Shown: positions 36,530 through 44,695 of the stretch, piece by piece
Numbering within the stretch: position 1 is the first letter of the stretch
Layout: every line of letters starts with the position of its first letter
Assembly (NCBI GenBank): GCA_964344305.1
Contig: CAYFMT010000007.1
Span: 26,886-90,885, forward strand
Direction: 5' to 3'
Source: an uncultured bacterium
GTDB taxonomy: Bacteria; Fidelibacterota; Marinisomatia; Marinisomatales; JABMOV01
Length of the DNA stretch: 64,000 bases
Translations under genes and position numbers: made by a program
The notes under the pieces: model-generated
Seen by the model: only the letters and a program-made list of their open reading frames with translations
What the model was told of the DNA's origin: nothing
Databases searched by the model: none

Positions 36530-37226
36530 TGGGATTGTTTTTTCCAATCATGATAACACATTCTCCTTTTGCAGGATGTGAACTAAAATATGATATGAGG
36601 TCAGAAATTGTTCCACGATGCATTTCCTCATGGATTTTGGTTATCTCTCTGCCAATGACAGCAGGTCTGTCACCCATTTCATTCAGAAGGTCATTAAGCG
36701 TCCTTACCAGACGTTTAGGACTTTCATACAGCACTACGGTGGCATTTTCATCAATCATGGATAAAATGCGCTTACGTCGACCTTTTTTTGGAGGTAGAAA
36801 GCCCTCAAAAATAAATCGATCTGTGGGCAATCCTGAAGATACCAGTGCAGCAATAACTGCAGAAGGTCCCGGCACAGGTGATACTGATACACTGGCATCA
36901 ATTGCACCACGGATAAGTTTGTAGGCTGGATCGCTGATTCCCGGTGTTCCTGCATCGGTAATCAATGCAATATCCTTACCACTGGTCAGGGACTCTACAA
37001 TTTGAGGGATGCGGGTAAACCTGTTATGCTCGTAATAACTGATAACCGGCGTATTTATGGAATAGTGCTTCAGCAGAATCCGGCTGTGTCGTGTATCTTC
37101 GGCAGCAATAACAGAGACTGATTTTAATATATCGATTGCCCTAAAGGTGATATCACCCAGGTTACCAATAGGTGTTGATACAATATAGAGTGTCCCTTTT
37201 TTATTGCTGTTTAAAGACGACTTAAT
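36513..37226 (-). CDS. rsmI: 16S rRNA (cytidine1402-2'-O)-methyltransferase RsmI (start codon unresolved)
   Basis: The track ORF starts at an internal TTG. The in-frame upstream translation ...KKGTLYIVSTPIGNLGDITFRAIDILKSVSVIAAEDTRHSRILLKHY... is the conserved RsmI N-terminus. No ATG/GTG/TTG lies between the in-frame TGA (37242..37244) and that motif. The ATT at 37226..37224 is given as a provisional start. Confidence 0.8.
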   Translation of the reverse strand: MKSSLNSNKKGTLYIVSTPIGNLGDITFRAIDILKSVSVIAAEDTRHSRILLKHYSINTPVISYYEHNRFTRIPQIVESLTSGKDIALITDAGTPGISDPAYKLIRGAIDASVSVSPVPGPSAVIAALVSSGLPTDRFIFEGFLPPKKGRRKRILSMIDENATVVLYESPKRLVRTLNDLLNEMGDRPAVIGREITKIHEEMHRGTISDLISYFSSHPAKGECVIMIGKNNPNVYFS

Positions 37227-38527
37227 GCCCTCCGAATAATGTCAATTCCCTGGTCAATTTCATCTTTGCTAATATTCAAATGAGGTCTAAACCTGATACT
37301 TTTGTGACCACATCCAAGAATCAATGCACCTTCTTCTGCAATCAGGCCAGCCAGTGAATCGCGTTTGTCTCCATCAGGCAAATCAAATGCACAGAATAGA
37401 CCAAGACCACGAGCGTTGGAAACAAGACCGCCAAACTCACCCTGAACATCGTGTAATTTTGATTGAAGGTATTTACCTGATTCTTTTGCTCGTGTCACAA
37501 GGTTTTCCTTCTCTATAATATCAAGGTAAAGTGTGAACCGAACCATATCAACTACATTTCCGCCCCAGGTGGAATTGATACGGCTAGATTCATGAAATAC
37601 ATTCTTCTCTACCTCATCAAGGCGATTCCCGGCAAACATACCACAAACCTGCGTTTTTTTACCAAAACTAATGATGTCAGGTCTTGCATTCTCTCCATAG
37701 TTTTGATGAGCCCACATTTCACCGGTCAATGCCACGCCGGTTTGGACTTCATCATAAATCAAAATAATTTCGTTTTCATCGGCGAGAGAACGGAGTGATT
37801 CAAAGAATTCCTTCCTGAAATGATTGTCTCCGCCTTCACCCTGTATGGGTTCAATAATAATTGATGCGATATCATATGGATTTTCAGCAATGGCTTTCTT
37901 GATCTCGCTAATGGCCTTTTTCTCAAGCTCGATTACTGATTCCAGATTTTCTGACAGTGGGAATGTGATTTTTGGGGTTGTAATCCTTGGCCAGTCAAAT
38001 TTTGGAAAATACATCACTTTTCGAGGGTCTGGAGAATCCGTTAGTGACATGGTATATCCAGTCCGACCGTGGAAACATTCACTAAAATGAATGACTTTTG
38101 AACCTAATTCCCCGCGGCCTGCGGCAATATTTTTCCGCACTTTCCAGTCAAATGCAGCTTTTAACGCATTCTCTACTGCCAGCCCTCCACCTTCAATGTA
38201 AAAAGCATAGGGAAGGTACTCGGGTTGAGCAACTCGTCCCATGGTAGATACAAACTCAGCCATTTCCTTAGAGTAGATATCAGAATTTGTAGGTTTGTTC
38301 ATGGCAGCGTCGGCCAAGCGTTCACGATTTTCAAGAATGTAAGGATGATTGTAACCTACAGACAGAGAAGCGAACATTGTGAATAAGTCCAGGTACTCCC
38401 GACCAGTTTTTGAATCAACAAGCCATGATCCATGACTTTTCTTTAAATCAATAACCGGATCCATGCCATCGGCCAGCATGTGTTTACCAATGGCAGAATG
38501 AACATTTTTTGCATCTACGTTAATCAT
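37211..38527 (-). CDS. lat: L-lysine 6-transaminase (class III aminotransferase)
   Basis: 438 aa with long colinear similarity to actinobacterial/flavobacterial Lat (NKP.NSD.YS...F....., GGLAVENALKAAFDWK, FDWPRI, EPIQGEGGD, FDEVQTG, FGKKTQVCG, NSTWGGN). Confidence 0.88.
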   Translation of the reverse strand: MINVDAKNVHSAIGKHMLADGMDPVIDLKKSHGSWLVDSKTGREYLDLFTMFASLSVGYNHPYILENRERLADAAMNKPTNSDIYSKEMAEFVSTMGRVAQPEYLPYAFYIEGGGLAVENALKAAFDWKVRKNIAAGRGELGSKVIHFSECFHGRTGYTMSLTDSPDPRKVMYFPKFDWPRITTPKITFPLSENLESVIELEKKAISEIKKAIAENPYDIASIIIEPIQGEGGDNHFRKEFFESLRSLADENEIILIYDEVQTGVALTGEMWAHQNYGENARPDIISFGKKTQVCGMFAGNRLDEVEKNVFHESSRINSTWGGNVVDMVRFTLYLDIIEKENLVTRAKESGKYLQSKLHDVQGEFGGLVSNARGLGLFCAFDLPDGDKRDSLAGLIAEEGALILGCGHKSIRFRPHLNISKDEIDQGIDIIRRALSRL

Positions 38528-38549
38528 ATTTATCCTCGAATTTATACCG

Positions 38550-40079
38550 TTATAAGTCGAATTTAATTCCCTGAGCCAAAGGCAGGTCCTTGCTCCAGTT
38601 TATTGTGTTTGTCTGGCGACGCATATAGGCTTTCCAGGAGTCTGAGCCTGATTCCCTGCCGCCTCCTGTCTCCTTCTCACCACCAAACGCTCCGCCAATC
38701 TCTGCACCGGATGTCCCAATATTGACATTGGCAATTCCACAGTCGCTGCCGCGAGAAGATAAAAATTCTTCTGCATGCTGAACATTCATCGTGAAGATAG
38801 ATGACGATAATCCCTGGGGAACGCCATTGTGTAGTTCAAGTGCATCATCCAAATCCTTATATGTAATAATATATAGGATTGGGGCAAATGTTTCATGTTG
38901 CACTATATCCCACTCATTCCTTGCTTTTACAATGGTAGGTTCGACAAAAAATCCATCACCATCCATGGCATTTCCGCCATAAAGAATTTCACCACCTGCT
39001 TCTTTTACTTTTTCTATAGCTCCACTATAATCCTCTACCGCAGCCTGGTTGACGAGTGGCCCCATAAGTGTACCATCCTCAATTGGGTTGCCAATTTTCA
39101 CCTGACCATAGGCATGGACAAGTTTCTCAATCAAGGTATCTGCTATGGACTCCTGAACGATGATACGACGAGTGGATGTGCATCGCTGGCCTGCAGTTCC
39201 AACTGCACCAAACACAATAGCTGGAATTGCCATGGATAAATCCGCTGATTCATCCACGATGATGGCGTTATTTCCACCCAATTCCAGAATGGATTTTCCA
39301 AACCTCTTTGCGACTGCTTCACCAACATGTCTTCCCATATAGGTTGACCCTGTAAAAGAAATCAATGGTACGCGAGTATCTTTGATCAATTCCTCACCAA
39401 TGGTGGAGCCTCGACCAATTATGATACTAAAAATGCCTGAATACCCATTTCTTTCCATGACACTGTTGCAGATATTCTGAACGGCAATGGCACAGAGAGG
39501 TACAGTGCTTGATGGTTTCCAGATGACAGTATTTCCGCAAATAGCAGCGATGAATGCGTTCCATGCCCATACCGCAACGGGAAAGTTGAAAGCACTGATG
39601 ACGCCTACAGGACCGAGTGGATGCCATTGTTCGTACATGCGATGATCGGGACGTTCTGAATGCATGGTATTTCCATACAGCATACGTGATTGTCCAACAG
39701 CAAAATCCGCAATATCGATCATTTCCTGGACTTCCCCATCACCTTCAGCCTTGATTTTCCCCATTTCCAGCGATACGAGGGATCCGAGTAAATCTTTATA
39801 CTTTCGTAATTCATCCCCCATCTGACGAACAAGTTCACCACGAATAGGAGCCGGAACTTTCCTGAATTCCTTAAATGCTGTAACGGAATCCTGTACCACC
39901 TGCTCATAATCGTTTAGACTGCATTGATAAACGTGTCCAAGAGTCTCACCTGTTGCTGGATTCAAGGATGTTAGAGTCCCTGCATCTAATGTTTTTGACC
40001 ATGTTCCTGTTCCTGTACAGGCACCATAATTGTATTCTTTTATCCCAAGTCCTGTTAAGATATCGTTGATTGTGGACAT
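38550..40079 (-). CDS. pcd: ALDH7-type aldehyde dehydrogenase (alpha-aminoadipic semialdehyde / piperideine-6-carboxylate dehydrogenase)
   Basis: 509 aa with ALDH motifs (ELGGNNA, catalytic GTAGQRCT). N-terminal and overall pattern resemble antiquitin/Pcd, and it lies directly downstream of lat. Confidence 0.8.
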
Positions 40080-40171
40080 TTTTTGCTCCTAAAATGTGGA
40101 AATGTTGTAAAAATCCAGCAGAGAAGTTATTAGTTTAAAACACGAGAAAAAATGCTAGTGAATAGATATAT

Positions 40172-40203
40172 AAAAAAACCTGTCTATTATGACAGGTTTT
40201 TTT
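40172..40203 (-). terminator. rho-independent (bidirectional-type) terminator
   Basis: 8-bp stem AACCTGTC / GACAGGTT with a 6-nt loop, flanked by A7 on one side and T7 on the other. It sits just 3' of the selenoprotein gene stop at 40208. Confidence 0.8.
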
Positions 40204-40207
40204 GAAT

Positions 40208-41248
40208 TCATTCTTTTTCCAGGAATTTATTTTTCTGTTTCAGATAGTAATCGTCATCCGGTTGAAGTGCAATACACTTGTCAATAATCATCACCGCATC
40301 ATCAATTTTACCTAACTTCCATAACACCTCTGCCTCTGTATCCATCACCTGGGCTATTGCAAGTGTCTCTTTCTCTTCGATCATTGATACTGCACGTCGA
40401 ACTTTTTCTAAGGCATCATTCAAATAAAGATCCAGCTCGGTCATCCGCCAGGCATACCCATTCAATAAACTGTAACTGTCCTTACCCATTTTTATGGCGA
40501 GATCTGTCAGTTTTTTGTAGGCTTCAGCTTCTTCCGAGTGTGCCTTTGCTTGTTTGAAGTGTTTAACCAGGGATGAATACGCGGTAGGCAAATATTCACT
40601 TTCCGGGAAGGAGGTAATGAAATCAGTAATTCTATCAATCTTTCCCTCCTGGGAAAGTCTGTACTGGGCACTTTTTAACTTTGCATATTCAACCAGAGTT
40701 TCATCGAGATCAGCTACGTTTTTCCAGGCGTCCATAGCACTGGATAAATCACCTTTATCCTCGTATTTCTCAGCGAGCGCTTTCAACATCTCTATATCTC
40801 CAGGATTCTTCTGCAATTCTTTTTCCATGGAAGATATTGTACCAAGATTCTTGCGAATCCTCTCCAATTCGTCAATAAACTCTTTTGGGGGTAAATACCC
40901 TACTATCCGATCTATCTCCTCACCATTCGCATCAGCAACAATGGTGGTCGGGAACCCCTGAATATGATATTTATCCTTAAGAAATGGTCCATTGCCTTTT
41001 TCACCATCCACTTTAAGGGCCAGAAAATATGTTGATGCGTATTTGATAACTTCCTTATCAGAAAATGTCTCGGCATCCAGCCGTTTACACCAACTTCACC
41101 AATCTGTATAAAATTCAATCAACAACAGTTTTTCCCCGGCTTCTGATATCAAATCCTCATAGGATTTATCAGACCAGGGGAATTCCTCTGGAATTGACTG
41201 ACAGGCAAATAGTACTAGCAGAATTGTTGATAACAATATTTTATTCAT
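40208..41248 (-). CDS. thioredoxin-fold (U-x-x-C) + TPR lipoprotein; predicted selenoprotein with in-frame TGA at 41096..41098 read as Sec
   Basis: The ATG at 41248 is in frame (79 codons) with the track ORF 40208..41011. Translation reads MNKILLSTILLVLFAC...LLLIEFYTDW-[TGA]-SWCKRLDAETFSDKEVIKYASTYFLALKVDGEKGNG..., so the TGA replaces the first Cys of WCxxC. A SECIS-like hairpin follows. Confidence 0.7.
41064..41091 (-). promoter_or_regulatory. candidate bacterial SECIS hairpin
   Basis: The mRNA 4 nt after UGA can fold as GGUGU-AAA-CGGC-UGGAU-GCCG-AG-ACAUU. This gives a 5-bp lower stem (2 G-U pairs), an internal loop, a 4-bp GC upper stem, and a G-containing apical loop starting 16 nt after UGA. 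Confidence 0.5.
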
Positions 41249-41261
41249 GATTTGCATAATC

Positions 41262-41675
41262 TCATTCACTTAAATGTTCTTTTAATTTATTCAGTACTTG
41301 TGCTGGAGGTCGCACAGGTTTTTGACTCTTTTTGGAGATGAATACATGGGTGGTTGACCCTTTAACCAGGACTTTATTTTCATTTTGTCTTACTATTTCG
41401 TATTCAATTTCTAATCTCAATTTCGGCAACTCTCTGATTGCGGTCCGAACAATTAGGTTGTCCTCGAATTGTGCCCCTTCAAGATAGTGACAATCAGCAT
41501 GGACAACCGGCAGGTAAACGCCTAAAGTTTCAATGGATGTAACATCCAATTCGATGGAAGCCAGTAATTCTGTTCGCGCTGATTCAAAATACTCCAGATA
41601 ACGGGAATAGTAGACGATACCCATTTGATCAATATCGCGATAATACACTTTTACGTGATAATCATGATGGATCAT
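41262..41675 (-). CDS. 4HBT-family acyl-CoA thioesterase (YbgC-like)
   Basis: 137 aa. The pattern VYYRDIDQMGIVYYSRYLEYFE.ART matches the hotdog-fold YbgC/FadM signature. Confidence 0.8.
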   Translation of the reverse strand: MIHHDYHVKVYYRDIDQMGIVYYSRYLEYFESARTELLASIELDVTSIETLGVYLPVVHADCHYLEGAQFEDNLIVRTAIRELPKLRLEIEYEIVRQNENKVLVKGSTTHVFISKKSQKPVRPPAQVLNKLKEHLSE

Positions 41676-42631
41676 CAGTTTTCGGTATAGGATCCCAGTT
41701 TATCATATTTTTCAATGCGTGAAGCGAGAAAACTTTCAGGGGATGAATTGTATAAAGAATCAAGCTCTTCGCTGATGGCTGATTTCAGCAAATCGAAGGT
41801 AGACTTTGGATCCCTGTGAGCTCCACCATGCGGTTCAGGAATAACCCTGTCACAAACACCCATTTTTACTAGATCACCTGGGATAAGCTTCAAGGCTTCA
41901 GCTGCATCGGATGCTTTTCCTGCATCATGCCAAAGAATAGATGCACACCCTTCCGGACTGATGACAGAATACCATGTATTTTCAAGCATGAGCATCCTGT
42001 CTGCCAATCCAATACCCAATGCTCCACCACTTGCACCTTCACCAATCACAATGGATATTATAGGAACCTGTAACCGGGACATTTCAAACAGATTCTTCGC
42101 GATGGCTTCTCCTTGACCCCTTTCTTCAGCGCCAAGTCCAGGATAGGCACCCTGTGTATCTATGAGGGTTATAATCGGTCTATTAAATTTTTCAGCAAGT
42201 TTCATCAGTCGCAAAGCTTTTCTGTAACCTTCCGGTCGCATCATACCAAAATTTCTATACAGATTCTCCTTTGTATTCCTGCCTTTTTGTTGACCGATAT
42301 ACATTACAGAGCGTCCATTCAATGTACCCAGTCCTCCTACAGTGGATGGGTCATCAGCGAAATGTCGATCACCGTGTAACTCAACAAAATCGGGAGACCA
42401 GTCAGTAATGTAATCCAGAGTGTATGGCCTTTCGGGATGACGTGCCAGTTGGACCCGTTGCCACCGGCTCAAACGTGAAAATATTTTCTCGATGGTATCG
42501 TCACGTCGTTTCTCCAGCTTCGTGATATCCTCTGCATTGCTTAGCGACGGATCATCTGATGTGCGCAATTCAATAATTTTTTCATCAAGATCCTTGATAG
42601 GATTTTCAAATTCCAGATATGTATTGGGCAT
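41675..42631 (-). CDS. accA: acetyl-CoA carboxylase carboxyltransferase alpha subunit
   Basis: 318 aa containing LDFE.PI..L...I..L, HP.RPYTLDYI, DT.GAYPG..AEERGQ.EAIA and GEG.SGGALG. Confidence 0.95.
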   Translation of the reverse strand: MPNTYLEFENPIKDLDEKIIELRTSDDPSLSNAEDITKLEKRRDDTIEKIFSRLSRWQRVQLARHPERPYTLDYITDWSPDFVELHGDRHFADDPSTVGGLGTLNGRSVMYIGQQKGRNTKENLYRNFGMMRPEGYRKALRLMKLAEKFNRPIITLIDTQGAYPGLGAEERGQGEAIAKNLFEMSRLQVPIISIVIGEGASGGALGIGLADRMLMLENTWYSVISPEGCASILWHDAGKASDAAEALKLIPGDLVKMGVCDRVIPEPHGGAHRDPKSTFDLLKSAISEELDSLYNSSPESFLASRIEKYDKLGSYTEN

Positions 42632-42640
42632 ATTCTTCCG

Positions 42641-44695
42641 TTAAAATACCGTTTTTAAAATAATCTCCAGATCCAGTGTCAAACCCTGATTCTGGATATA
42701 GTAATGATCCAAAACTCTTTGATCATCAGCGGAGAAGTTAATATTGCGAAGTCTCTGCATCCCAGTAAGTCCGGGGATGCAAATTAAGTGGGGATCATCT
42801 ACGTTGGTGGGGACAAGTTTGGAACCCACGAAACTCATTTTACCCTGAATGATCTGCGCCATCAAAGGTAAGTATTTGATGAATTGAATTTTGCTGTCAA
42901 AGATACTTGCATTAATTGTCGTATTGTCCTCACCCCAGTAATCCTGTCGAATTCGTCTTCCGTGCATGAATAAGTACACAGGACTACAAATAATCATTAT
43001 GGCGGAAGCAAATACAATATCAAACAGACGCTTAACGACCCAGTTAACTCGATGGAATAGTGTGTACTCAATATGAACAAACGAATAATCACCTAATTCC
43101 TCAATGGATGCCTTACCCAGTAGAATATCCTGGTTGCGAGGTACCATGCGATATGTCAAACGCAAATCCTTAGTATTGTCCATAATGGATAATCCATTTT
43201 TCGACACATAGGAGCTGGATGGAAATATAATTTCACGGATTTTTAATTTGTCAATAATACCACGGATATCTGAGATCCTGCCTACGAACGGAATGGGTAA
43301 CTCATCCTGTGGTACCGTTAACTCAGAATCGCAAAATCCAACTAATTCAAGACCGGTTTCAAAGCGTTTGGATAAATGTTTTGCAATTCGAATGGCTTCT
43401 TTATCCGTACCAATAATTAGGGTTTTCCGCGCAAACAGTATATTATTCTTATCCTTTACCTGTGTGAAATACCCACGACTCATCCAGTAATGAAACAACA
43501 TTCTCCAGCCGGGAATCAACACGGTAATGAGAAGGGTTGCAACAATAATGACCAGGCGTGAAAATGCAAACTGTTTGAAGAAATAAGTGAATGCAGTGGC
43601 AATAAAAAATCCGGACAAAGATGACAGTATTGCACGTGTGTATGACAGAATATATCTTGAATAGAGTTGAAATGTTGCATTAATGATTAACCAGAAAACA
43701 ACATAAATCCCAGGGATGAATCCTCTGGTAACTACTACGGGTTCAAAATCTGTAAACCGGATGGGTATGGCTATAGCAAACGCAGTCAACACGGCAAATG
43801 CATCCAGCGAAATCGACAGGATCTGTGATTTTGACCCGCCAATGATGGCAATGGTTTTCCTGAATCTGACACCTGCTTTCACCATAAACCGAGTCATTCG
43901 CTTTTGACCAACGGAGAAATATTTATCCGCAAATAAAATCATGGCAGAGTAAAATGCCTGAATACTGTCATAGGGAGCTGATTTTACAGATTCGCCATGG
44001 AAATGGATGATTTTTGCTTCAGGTAAATAATGAATTTCCTTTCCGCTTATTTTCACCTGGAAACAGAGATCAAGATCTTCCCCGAACATGAAATATCGCT
44101 CATCAAAACCATGAAGATCATGGTAAAGGTCGGACCGAATAAACATGCATGACCCGCTGATGGCTTCCACTGAATGTATGTCATCTGGATCTAGATAGGT
44201 AAGATTGTATTTTCCGGCCCATTTGGAACGAGGGAACAATTTTGATAATCCCAATAATTTTGGCAGGGCAACCATAGGTCTGGGGAATGACCGTTTGCAT
44301 GCAGGTTGAAGAGATCCATCCGTGTTCAGTATTTTTGGTCCCACCATGCCAACATGGTTTTGGGATTCCATGTAATTGACGAATGTTTCAACGGTGGATT
44401 CCTCAAGGATCGTATCCGGGTTCAATATTAAATAATAGTCGCCATTTGCAACATCTGCAGCCTGGTTTACCGCTTTCCCAAACCCCAGATTTGTTGAATT
44501 ATGAATGATTTGAATATTCTCGGGGAGATCCTTGATTGCCTCTGCAGAGCCATCGTATGAGTTATTGTCAACAACAACAACATCGATATCACCCTTATAA
44601 CTAGAGGATAAAACCGTATCAATACAATGAAGGAGGTATTGTTTTACATTATAACTGACAATTAAAACCGAAACAGTCGGATTTTTGGGGTCCAT
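42641..44695 (-). CDS. fusion protein: GT2 glycosyltransferase + polytopic membrane region + CoA-binding-like domain + degenerate bacterial sugar-transferase (PGT) domain
   Basis: The N-terminal ~290 aa is GT2 (VSVLIVSYN...VVDNNS.DGS...DED). The middle has ~5 TM helices and a WbaP-like Rossmann segment (TLIIGTDKEA..IA). The C-terminus resembles Bac_transf (KRLFDIVFASAIMIICSPV...PGLTG...LDLEIILKTV) but is shortened. Confidence 0.7.
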   Translation of the reverse strand: MDPKNPTVSVLIVSYNVKQYLLHCIDTVLSSSYKGDIDVVVVDNNSYDGSAEAIKDLPENIQIIHNSTNLGFGKAVNQAADVANGDYYLILNPDTILEESTVETFVNYMESQNHVGMVGPKILNTDGSLQPACKRSFPRPMVALPKLLGLSKLFPRSKWAGKYNLTYLDPDDIHSVEAISGSCMFIRSDLYHDLHGFDERYFMFGEDLDLCFQVKISGKEIHYLPEAKIIHFHGESVKSAPYDSIQAFYSAMILFADKYFSVGQKRMTRFMVKAGVRFRKTIAIIGGSKSQILSISLDAFAVLTAFAIAIPIRFTDFEPVVVTRGFIPGIYVVFWLIINATFQLYSRYILSYTRAILSSLSGFFIATAFTYFFKQFAFSRLVIIVATLLITVLIPGWRMLFHYWMSRGYFTQVKDKNNILFARKTLIIGTDKEAIRIAKHLSKRFETGLELVGFCDSELTVPQDELPIPFVGRISDIRGIIDKLKIREIIFPSSSYVSKNGLSIMDNTKDLRLTYRMVPRNQDILLGKASIEELGDYSFVHIEYTLFHRVNWVVKRLFDIVFASAIMIICSPVYLFMHGRRIRQDYWGEDNTTINASIFDSKIQFIKYLPLMAQIIQGKMSFVGSKLVPTNVDDPHLICIPGLTGMQRLRNINFSADDQRVLDHYYIQNQGLTLDLEIILKTVF

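Follow-up and report, generated by a model that had tools for sequence, protein, structure and literature searches.

A very probable SECIS hairpin behind an in-frame UGA in a predicted thioredoxin-like/TPR selenoprotein gene of Marinimicrobia

The minus strand of a 64-kb stretch of DNA from an uncultured Marinisomatales bacterium (64,000 nucleotides of contig CAYFMT010000007.1, hereafter "the window") carries a gene for a thioredoxin-like protein that is interrupted by a single in-frame TGA, and a small hairpin lies immediately behind this codon in the mRNA. Comparison with orthologues makes it very probable that the hairpin is a genuine bacterial selenocysteine insertion sequence (SECIS) and that the gene encodes an exported selenoprotein combining a thioredoxin-like domain with a tetratricopeptide repeat (TPR) domain; the coordinates of all features are collected in Table 1. 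The TGA falls in the context F-Y-T-D-W-U-S-W-C-K-R-L-D (U, selenocysteine, Sec), in which the first CxxC cysteine is replaced by Sec. The domain around this motif is matched by the Pfam models Thioredoxin_2 (1.4e-14, 54.7 bits against a cut-off of 27) and Thioredoxin (8e-10, 39.1 bits, cut-off 23.5), with further Pfam matches to DsbH-like, Thioredoxin_7 and TPR families, and the C-terminal ~210 residues form a TPR-type domain. A Cys that follows the N-terminal hydrophobic stretch is kept in the full-length orthologues, and the sequence suggests that the protein is exported and lipid-anchored. None of the NCBIfam models scores above its cut-off, the matches to DsbD, DsbH and the TsoB C-terminal domain all being sub-threshold, and therefore no curated family covers this thioredoxin-TPR lipoprotein. 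The nearest solved structures are those of a putative disulphide isomerase from Bacteroides thetaiotaomicron (2KUC, 2e-16) and of the C-terminal domains of DsbD (3e-9). Both have the active-site region WCxxCKRL and the cis-Pro loop 'GYPT' in common with the protein, but they have Cys instead of Sec and no TPR domain.

In public gene calls for the identical sequence (L100-L104), the gene is represented by two open reading frames (ORFs), one of 50 amino acids (aa) that ends at the TGA and one of 267 aa that begins at an internal GTG/Met; the identical gene is present on contigs from runs ERR2281801-804 of PRJEB17505. NCBI, JGI and ENA contain dozens of orthologues that lack the N-terminus and are named 'thioredoxin family', 'TPR repeat' or hypothetical proteins. 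A protein search returned full-length Cys forms of 336-414 aa with the motif WC[STVN]WC, along with many truncated entries of 245-305 aa that start right behind this motif; the truncated entries that bear a source name are without exception assigned to Candidatus Marinimicrobia or Neomarinimicrobiota. A metagenome scan, for which an alignment of 20 homologues served as the query, returned 80 loci at 34-56% identity, of which 79 were counted, one (L067) having been misparsed and left out; metagenomic hits number 276 in all. At the codon for the first Cys of the motif, 70 of these 79 Candidatus Marinimicrobia/SAR406-type loci, which come from independent metagenomes, have TGA and nine have TGT or TGC. 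Clustering at 60% identity resolves the 69 distinct sequences into 29 clusters; the median pairwise protein identity among the sequences is ~38%, and the retention of TGA at the catalytic Cys over such divergence, beside Cys homologues, is the classical signature by which selenoprotein genes are predicted. An additional scan of contigs with the Cys-substituted protein yielded nine distant Cys homologues from Zixibacteria and Bacteroidota; its back-translated patterns demanded Cys and missed the Sec forms.

These data bear directly on the possibility that the TGA is a true stop, resulting from pseudogenization or a sequencing error or separating two genes of 50 and 267 aa. Such a reading would agree with the two ORFs proposed by gene callers and with the N-terminal truncation of many database entries, but it deserves next to no credence, given that the same codon is TGA in 70 independent loci from at least 26 sequence clusters, with the frame open on either side, and that full-length Cys homologues have their catalytic Cys at the aligned position. 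The downstream 'gene' would, moreover, be left without a signal peptide and without half of its thioredoxin fold.

No more credible is the idea that the UGA specifies one of the standard amino acids (Trp, Gly or Cys) under a reassigned code or by means of a suppressor tRNA, as might be supposed from the lack of visible Sec machinery in the window and from four full-length database proteins (P0002, P0019, P0029 and P0114) in which W stands where Sec is predicted (DWWSWC and similar). The W in these entries is most likely a gene-caller artefact produced by a code in which TGA is read as Trp. Such a code appears to have been used on short contigs of low G+C content, where the Sec codon is the sole in-frame TGA. 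In the window, TGA is the ordinary stop for 9 of the 36 long ORFs, no other gene needs readthrough, and there is no other credible in-frame-TGA or selenoprotein gene, so that the genetic code is not reassigned. Furthermore, Trp in the catalytic position of CxxC would inactivate the enzyme, and a reassigned code leaves unexplained a covarying hairpin that conforms to the bacterial SECIS (bSECIS) consensus.

In the minus-strand mRNA this hairpin is contained in the segment UGA AGUU GGUGU AAA CGGC UGGAU GCCG AG ACAUU UUC. An earlier note on this DNA, made from the letters alone, had drawn it as a lower stem, an asymmetric internal loop, a 4-bp upper stem made up entirely of G-C pairs and a 5-nt apical loop containing GG, with the loop starting 16 nt after the UGA. 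Both the structure and its position are as proposed, the distance of 16 nt is exact, and RNAfold returns the two-stem hairpin as the minimum free energy (MFE) structure and also as the centroid. The hairpin as drawn has an energy of -8.4 kcal/mol, compared to an MFE of -8.6 kcal/mol for the same 28-nt segment, and the MFE of a 45-nt segment is -10.5 kcal/mol. The core of the element, that is, the upper stem with its loop, occupies the codons Arg56-Leu57-Asp58-Ala59 and the first base of Glu60, in keeping with the proposal that the element is situated inside coding sequence.

The strongest evidence comes from an alignment of the 48 nt from the UGA onward in 60 distinct TGA forms, to which all counts for Sec forms below refer. 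The alignment is gap-free, and the 16-nt spacing is therefore the same in 60/60 sequences. The hairpin is conserved in these orthologues, with all four upper-stem pairs present in 58 of them and the loop beginning with UGG in 59. Across the upper stem (columns 16-19 with 25-28), 99.2% of the cells are paired. The loop is UGGAU in 46 sequences, UGGAC in nine, UGGAG in two and something else in three (UGGAY in 55/60); U20 and G21 are invariant in 60/60, and conservation reaches at least 90% at G22 and A23. Changes on both sides occur at three of the four upper-stem pairs, so that the covariation expected of a functional helix is present: pair 18-26 is GC in 50 sequences, AU in three, UA in three, GU in two, CG in one and UG in one; pair 19-25 is CG in 55 and UA in five; and pair 17-27 is GC in 51, GU in seven and UA in two. 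The stem variants comprise CGAC/GUCG, whose cluster also contains the G-U intermediate CGGC/GUCG, CGAC/GUUG, the related CGUU/AACG, CGUU/AGCG and CGCU/AGCG, CUGC/GCAG, and AUGC/GCAA, which, as reconstructed from the alignment, is the outcome of at least four separate compensatory histories in as many lineages. None of 500 column shuffles reached the observed covariation, a statistic that overstates independence because the sequences are related. When the whole nine-pair structure is considered, 86.5% of the cells are paired, compared to 26-56% (maximum 56.5%) when the 3' partners are slid by 1-3 columns.

The two parts of the drawn structure differ in their support. The upper stem and the loop are conserved, whereas the lower stem and the internal loop find no backing in covariation: only 76% of the cells of the lower 5-bp stem are paired, its changes are nearly all one-sided, its best pairs match the Cys codon UGU with the Thr codon ACA, and the RNAalifold consensus omits it and consists of the 4-bp upper helix alone. 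Many orthologues have a longer upper helix instead: U15-A29 is added in 45 of the 60, and pair 14-30 (for example, A14-U30), with six double-sided changes, forms in 24, one base being left bulged; in the window, positions 15 and 29 are A and A, and the stem is thus minimal at 4 bp. It is improbable, all the same, that the target of SelB, with the UGA still specifying Sec, is a longer or alternative fold (an extension through 15-29 and 14-30 with a bulge, or one involving downstream sequence) to which the drawn lower stem is irrelevant. For this possibility speak the extended pairing in the orthologues, the restriction of the RNAalifold consensus to the 4-bp stem, the second hairpin that follows in the window, and the minimal stem of the window sequence itself, but such a fold has the same core stem-loop, and hence would refine the SECIS interpretation rather than contradict it. 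As delimited by the alignment, the conserved and presumably functional core is the 13-nt minihelix CGGC-UGGAY-GCCG, rather than the two-stem structure as drawn.

The second hairpin (UGAUAAGGAAGUUAUCA, 5-6 bp) lies 3' of the SECIS in the MFE fold of the window sequence, at 41040-41060 on the minus strand, which corresponds to nt 39-54 of a 59-nt folded segment. A role of the hairpin site on the plus strand was also considered and rejected: the sole plus-strand ORF there, 41065-41250, overlaps the gene antisense and is taken as spurious. No terminator-like site was found at the SECIS hairpin.

Because the element is located inside a coding sequence, it might in principle be a by-product of coding, the peptide W-C-x-R-L-D-A-E-T-F merely happening to be self-complementary at the RNA level, with no role in UGA decoding. 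The stem and loop do fall on a conserved R-L-D-A, the lower-stem UGU and ACA are codons for Cys and Thr with one-sided variation and 76% pairing, and several Cys forms also have the hairpin. Codon usage nevertheless makes this explanation very improbable. At the site, Arg is encoded by CGG in 49/60 sequences, Leu by CUG in 55/60 (UUG in the remaining five) and Ala by GCC in 42/60, compared to 19%, 19% and 28% of the respective codon families in the rest of the same genes, and the G+C content of the orthologous genes spans 27% to 61%. This freezing of synonymous positions is confined to the hairpin and is absent at other invariant Arg, Leu and Ala residues of the same genes; thus, all six codons occur at the invariant Arg residues of EIDRIVG and AWRM and at the invariant Leu of EVLWK, CGG accounting for 12/51 and 7/55 and CUG for 5/59.

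The Cys forms provide a second comparison, with 18 distinct sequences, nine from the metagenome scan and nine from contigs that encode database homologues. The earlier note had allowed that Cys orthologues could carry the identical hairpin purely through codon constraint, and this is ruled out: all four upper pairs are kept in only 7/18 Cys forms, another 7/18 retain a single pair, and the loops degenerate to UAGAU, UUGAU, UGAAU or UGGCU. Where Cys forms encode RLDA, they choose codons that break the stem or the loop (CGU UUA GAU GCU; CGC CUG GAU GCG; CGG CUU GAU GCC), whereas all 44 RLDA-encoding Sec forms use [C/A]GG CUG GAY GCY. Cys forms also relax the peptide itself, from RLDA to KKLEA, KRLAK, KKLNA or RLDK. 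Sec forms have a mean MFE of -10.2 kcal/mol and Cys forms one of -6.65 kcal/mol (Mann-Whitney p = 1.7e-5), and 88% of the former versus 39% of the latter have an MFE of -7.5 kcal/mol or below. The seven Cys forms with the 4-bp stem are L034, L042, L044, L084 and L094, in which UGGAU is intact, L095 (UAGAU) and L096 (UUGAU). Because L034, L042, L044 and L084 share 60%-identity clusters with Sec forms and the motif region of L094 resembles that of L028/L029, the hairpins kept in Cys forms close to Sec forms look like relics of a SECIS after recent replacement of Sec by Cys; in more distant Cys forms the stem is lost.

Among the Sec forms, replacements of Ala59 by Val, Asn or Ser and of Arg56 by Leu or Met are found only in sequences in which the partner base has changed as well, so that pairing is preserved. 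This coupling of amino acid replacements to base changes that restore pairing is a further argument against a by-product of coding. Given that the element sits in coding sequence, the putative SECIS constrains the peptide R-L-D-A; the peptide appears to follow the RNA.

A consensus for bacterial SECIS elements (Zhang and Gladyshev 2005, in the summary given by the 2026 review PMC13188914, Fig. 2A) comprises a loop of 3-9 nt, 4-16 bp in the upper stem, a G at one or both of the two leading loop positions (in most cases GG or GU), a distance of 16-37 nt between the UGA and the loop, and an MFE of -7.5 kcal/mol or below. The window element agrees with this consensus on all four counts: its loop of 5 nt and its stem of 4 bp lie within the limits, the second loop position is the invariant G21, the spacing of 16 nt is the lower limit of the range, and the 28-nt energies given above lie below the threshold. 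It also has the marks of a functional SECIS: it lies inside coding sequence, directly 3' of an in-frame UGA for which homologues have Cys, and its structure is under selection. Like the E. coli elements of the fdhF/fdnG type, it is a stem-loop within the coding sequence directly 3' of an in-frame UGA, with an MFE below -7.5 kcal/mol, although it has no resemblance to the E. coli elements in primary sequence. In E. coli fdhF, a bulged U of the SECIS contributes to SelB binding; the window sequence, in contrast, has no bulged U.

Several observations, to which the relatedness of the aligned sequences is to be added, weigh against a SECIS. The fold claimed in the earlier note is the one returned by RNAfold, yet it does not convincingly beat dinucleotide shuffles: a 59-nt segment folds at -13.1 kcal/mol compared to a shuffle mean of -8.9 kcal/mol (z = -1.84), a stability matched by 12 of 200 shuffles. 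Stability is marginal, and the window sequence alone cannot establish that the hairpin is meaningful; that it exceeds chance follows from the comparison of orthologues and not from single-sequence stability. A search of the whole window with Rfam release 15 at the gathering score detected no SECIS or other relevant family, and relaxing the threshold to E-values up to 10 for 40900-41250 gave only a spurious match to snoRNA sR9 (15.8 bits). The stem of 4 bp and the spacing of 16 nt are both at the lower limits of the consensus, and the loop ends are U and U, without the N1-N2 pair that is usual in bSECIS loops. Finally, selA, selB, selD and tRNA-Sec were not found in the 64-kb window or in ~0.4 Mb of sequence flanking the orthologues. 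ARAGORN and Rfam predicted no tRNA-Sec in the window, NCBIfam models identified only housekeeping genes and no Sec machinery among 20 window ORFs of appropriate size, and phmmer searches with E. coli SelA, SelB and SelD against six-frame fragments of the window and the loci matched only the GTPase domain of an 828-aa ORF after nusA, taken to be IF2.

In 1.03 Mb of sequence, both strands counted, an open-frame UGA with a UGGNN loop behind it on a stem of 4 bp or more was found 70 times in members of the family and twice elsewhere, and the two non-family matches are at chance level.

The SECIS interpretation implies a mechanism that can be outlined by analogy with the model established for E. 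coli and Moorella, from which it is inferred that SelB binds the element, that G21/G22 of the loop are the bases it contacts and that Sec is incorporated. SelB, loaded with Sec-tRNA(Sec), would dock on the 13-nt minihelix CGGC-UGGAU-GCCG and be held at the ribosome while the UGA occupies the A site, so that Sec would be inserted and termination avoided. The Sec residue thus incorporated would serve as the attacking redox residue of the U-S-W-C motif. Selenoproteins with a UxxC motif in a thioredoxin fold have been catalogued previously, such as the 'thiol:disulfide interchange protein' (PF13098) and the marine 'Trx-like 2/3' of the Global Ocean Sampling (GOS) survey. The present family, which has a PF13098/PF00085 domain and Sec at position one of CxxC alongside Cys homologues, belongs with these proteins: common to both are a Thioredoxin_2/DsbD-gamma-like domain, Sec as the first residue of CxxC, abundant Cys homologues and an origin in marine metagenomes. 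It seems to differ from them in the lipoprotein signal, in the TPR domain and in that its named entries are all from Marinimicrobia (SAR406).

A further-reaching proposal would be that the element is a near-minimal, lineage-specific SECIS adapted to a Marinimicrobia SelB with its own loop specificity and that the gene family constitutes direct evidence for Sec decoding in SAR406/Marinimicrobia; this is put forward tentatively, as a possibility with the balance somewhat against it. A search of the literature on Marinimicrobia, Marinisomatota or SAR406 retrieved nothing specific on selenoproteins. The nearest report is a 2016 table in which three SAR406 single-cell genomes are listed with an 'orphan SelD' and no recognised selenium-utilisation trait (PMC5029168, Table 1). 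The presence of this SelD would be explained if a selenoprotein gene with a SECIS were widespread in SAR406.

The kind of element described here, a bacterial SECIS, is already known, and in public annotation the SECIS has been missed and the gene split. Readthrough of the UGA would restore a complete exported selenoprotein from the truncated or split entries of an abundant marine gene family, and the family offers evidence at the gene level for the use of Sec in uncultivated SAR406/Marinimicrobia, with a bearing on trace-element use in the ocean interior. The alignment of 60 sequences amounts to an unusually clean natural experiment on a minimal SECIS (4 bp, a loop of 5 nt and a spacing of 16 nt), in which compensatory changes pull amino acid replacements along; it could help to refine search models for bacterial SECIS elements and to design compact tags for Sec insertion. 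Understanding of the mechanism of Sec insertion is unchanged by the finding, the general interest of which is modest.

Table 1. Position and basis of the features at the predicted selenoprotein locus (window coordinates)
Feature	Coordinates	Strand	Basis or remark
Predicted selenoprotein gene, 346 codons plus stop, read via in-frame TGA	40208-41248	-	Translation; full-length Cys/Sec orthologues
Putative signal peptide with lipobox-like L-F-A-C (Cys16), MNKILLSTILLVLFAC	41201-41248	-	Sequence inference
Thioredoxin-like domain, residues 38-127, DsbD-gamma/DsbH-like	40868-41137	-	Pfam; NCBIfam sub-threshold
In-frame UGA, predicted Sec codon (residue 51)	41098-41096	-	First Cys position of CxxC
Resolving Cys54 of UxxC, codon UGU	41087-41089	-	First two bases (columns 10-11) invariant, third U/C (60 TGA forms)
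Hairpin as first drawn: lower stem GGUGU/ACAUU, internal loop AAA/AG, upper stem, loop	41064-41091	-	MFE and centroid structure
Lower stem	41091-41087 with 41068-41064	-	5 bp, two G-U pairs
Predicted SECIS core: 4-bp G+C stem CGGC/GCCG and pentaloop UGGAU	41071-41083	-	Only helix of the RNAalifold consensus
Upper stem	41083-41080 with 41074-41071	-	
Apical loop UGGAU	41079-41075	-	
YbgC-type acyl-CoA thioesterase	41262-41675	-	NCBIfam; upstream
accA	41675-42631	-	NCBIfam; upstream
14-bp hairpin between an A run and a T run	40171-40204	.	Terminator-like site, 4 nt past the stop of the selenoprotein gene

Upstream of the selenoprotein gene, the order accA, thioesterase, thioredoxin-TPR is repeated in the Cys-form loci L091-L093 and in the contigs of the window's own sequence, and this conservation of gene order supports orthology; in L090, the ORF after accA is small and has no Pfam match. 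The three genes have no evident functional link. Downstream, the 14-bp hairpin lies between convergent ends, those of the selenoprotein gene and of nearby plus-strand sequence, and probably represents a bidirectional intrinsic terminator that ends the transcript. Directly downstream, minus-strand genes in 37211-40079 encode L-lysine 6-transaminase (TIGR03251, 1.6e-191) and L-piperideine-6-carboxylate dehydrogenase (NF050084, 2.7e-239), which together make up the catabolic pair that leads from lysine to 2-aminoadipate. A 684-aa ORF at 42641-44695, also on the minus strand, has a family-2 glycosyltransferase at its N-terminus and a polyprenyl glycosylphosphotransferase (of the WcaJ/exopolysaccharide (EPS) sugar transferase type) at its C-terminus, and adjoins rmlD and another glycosyltransferase.

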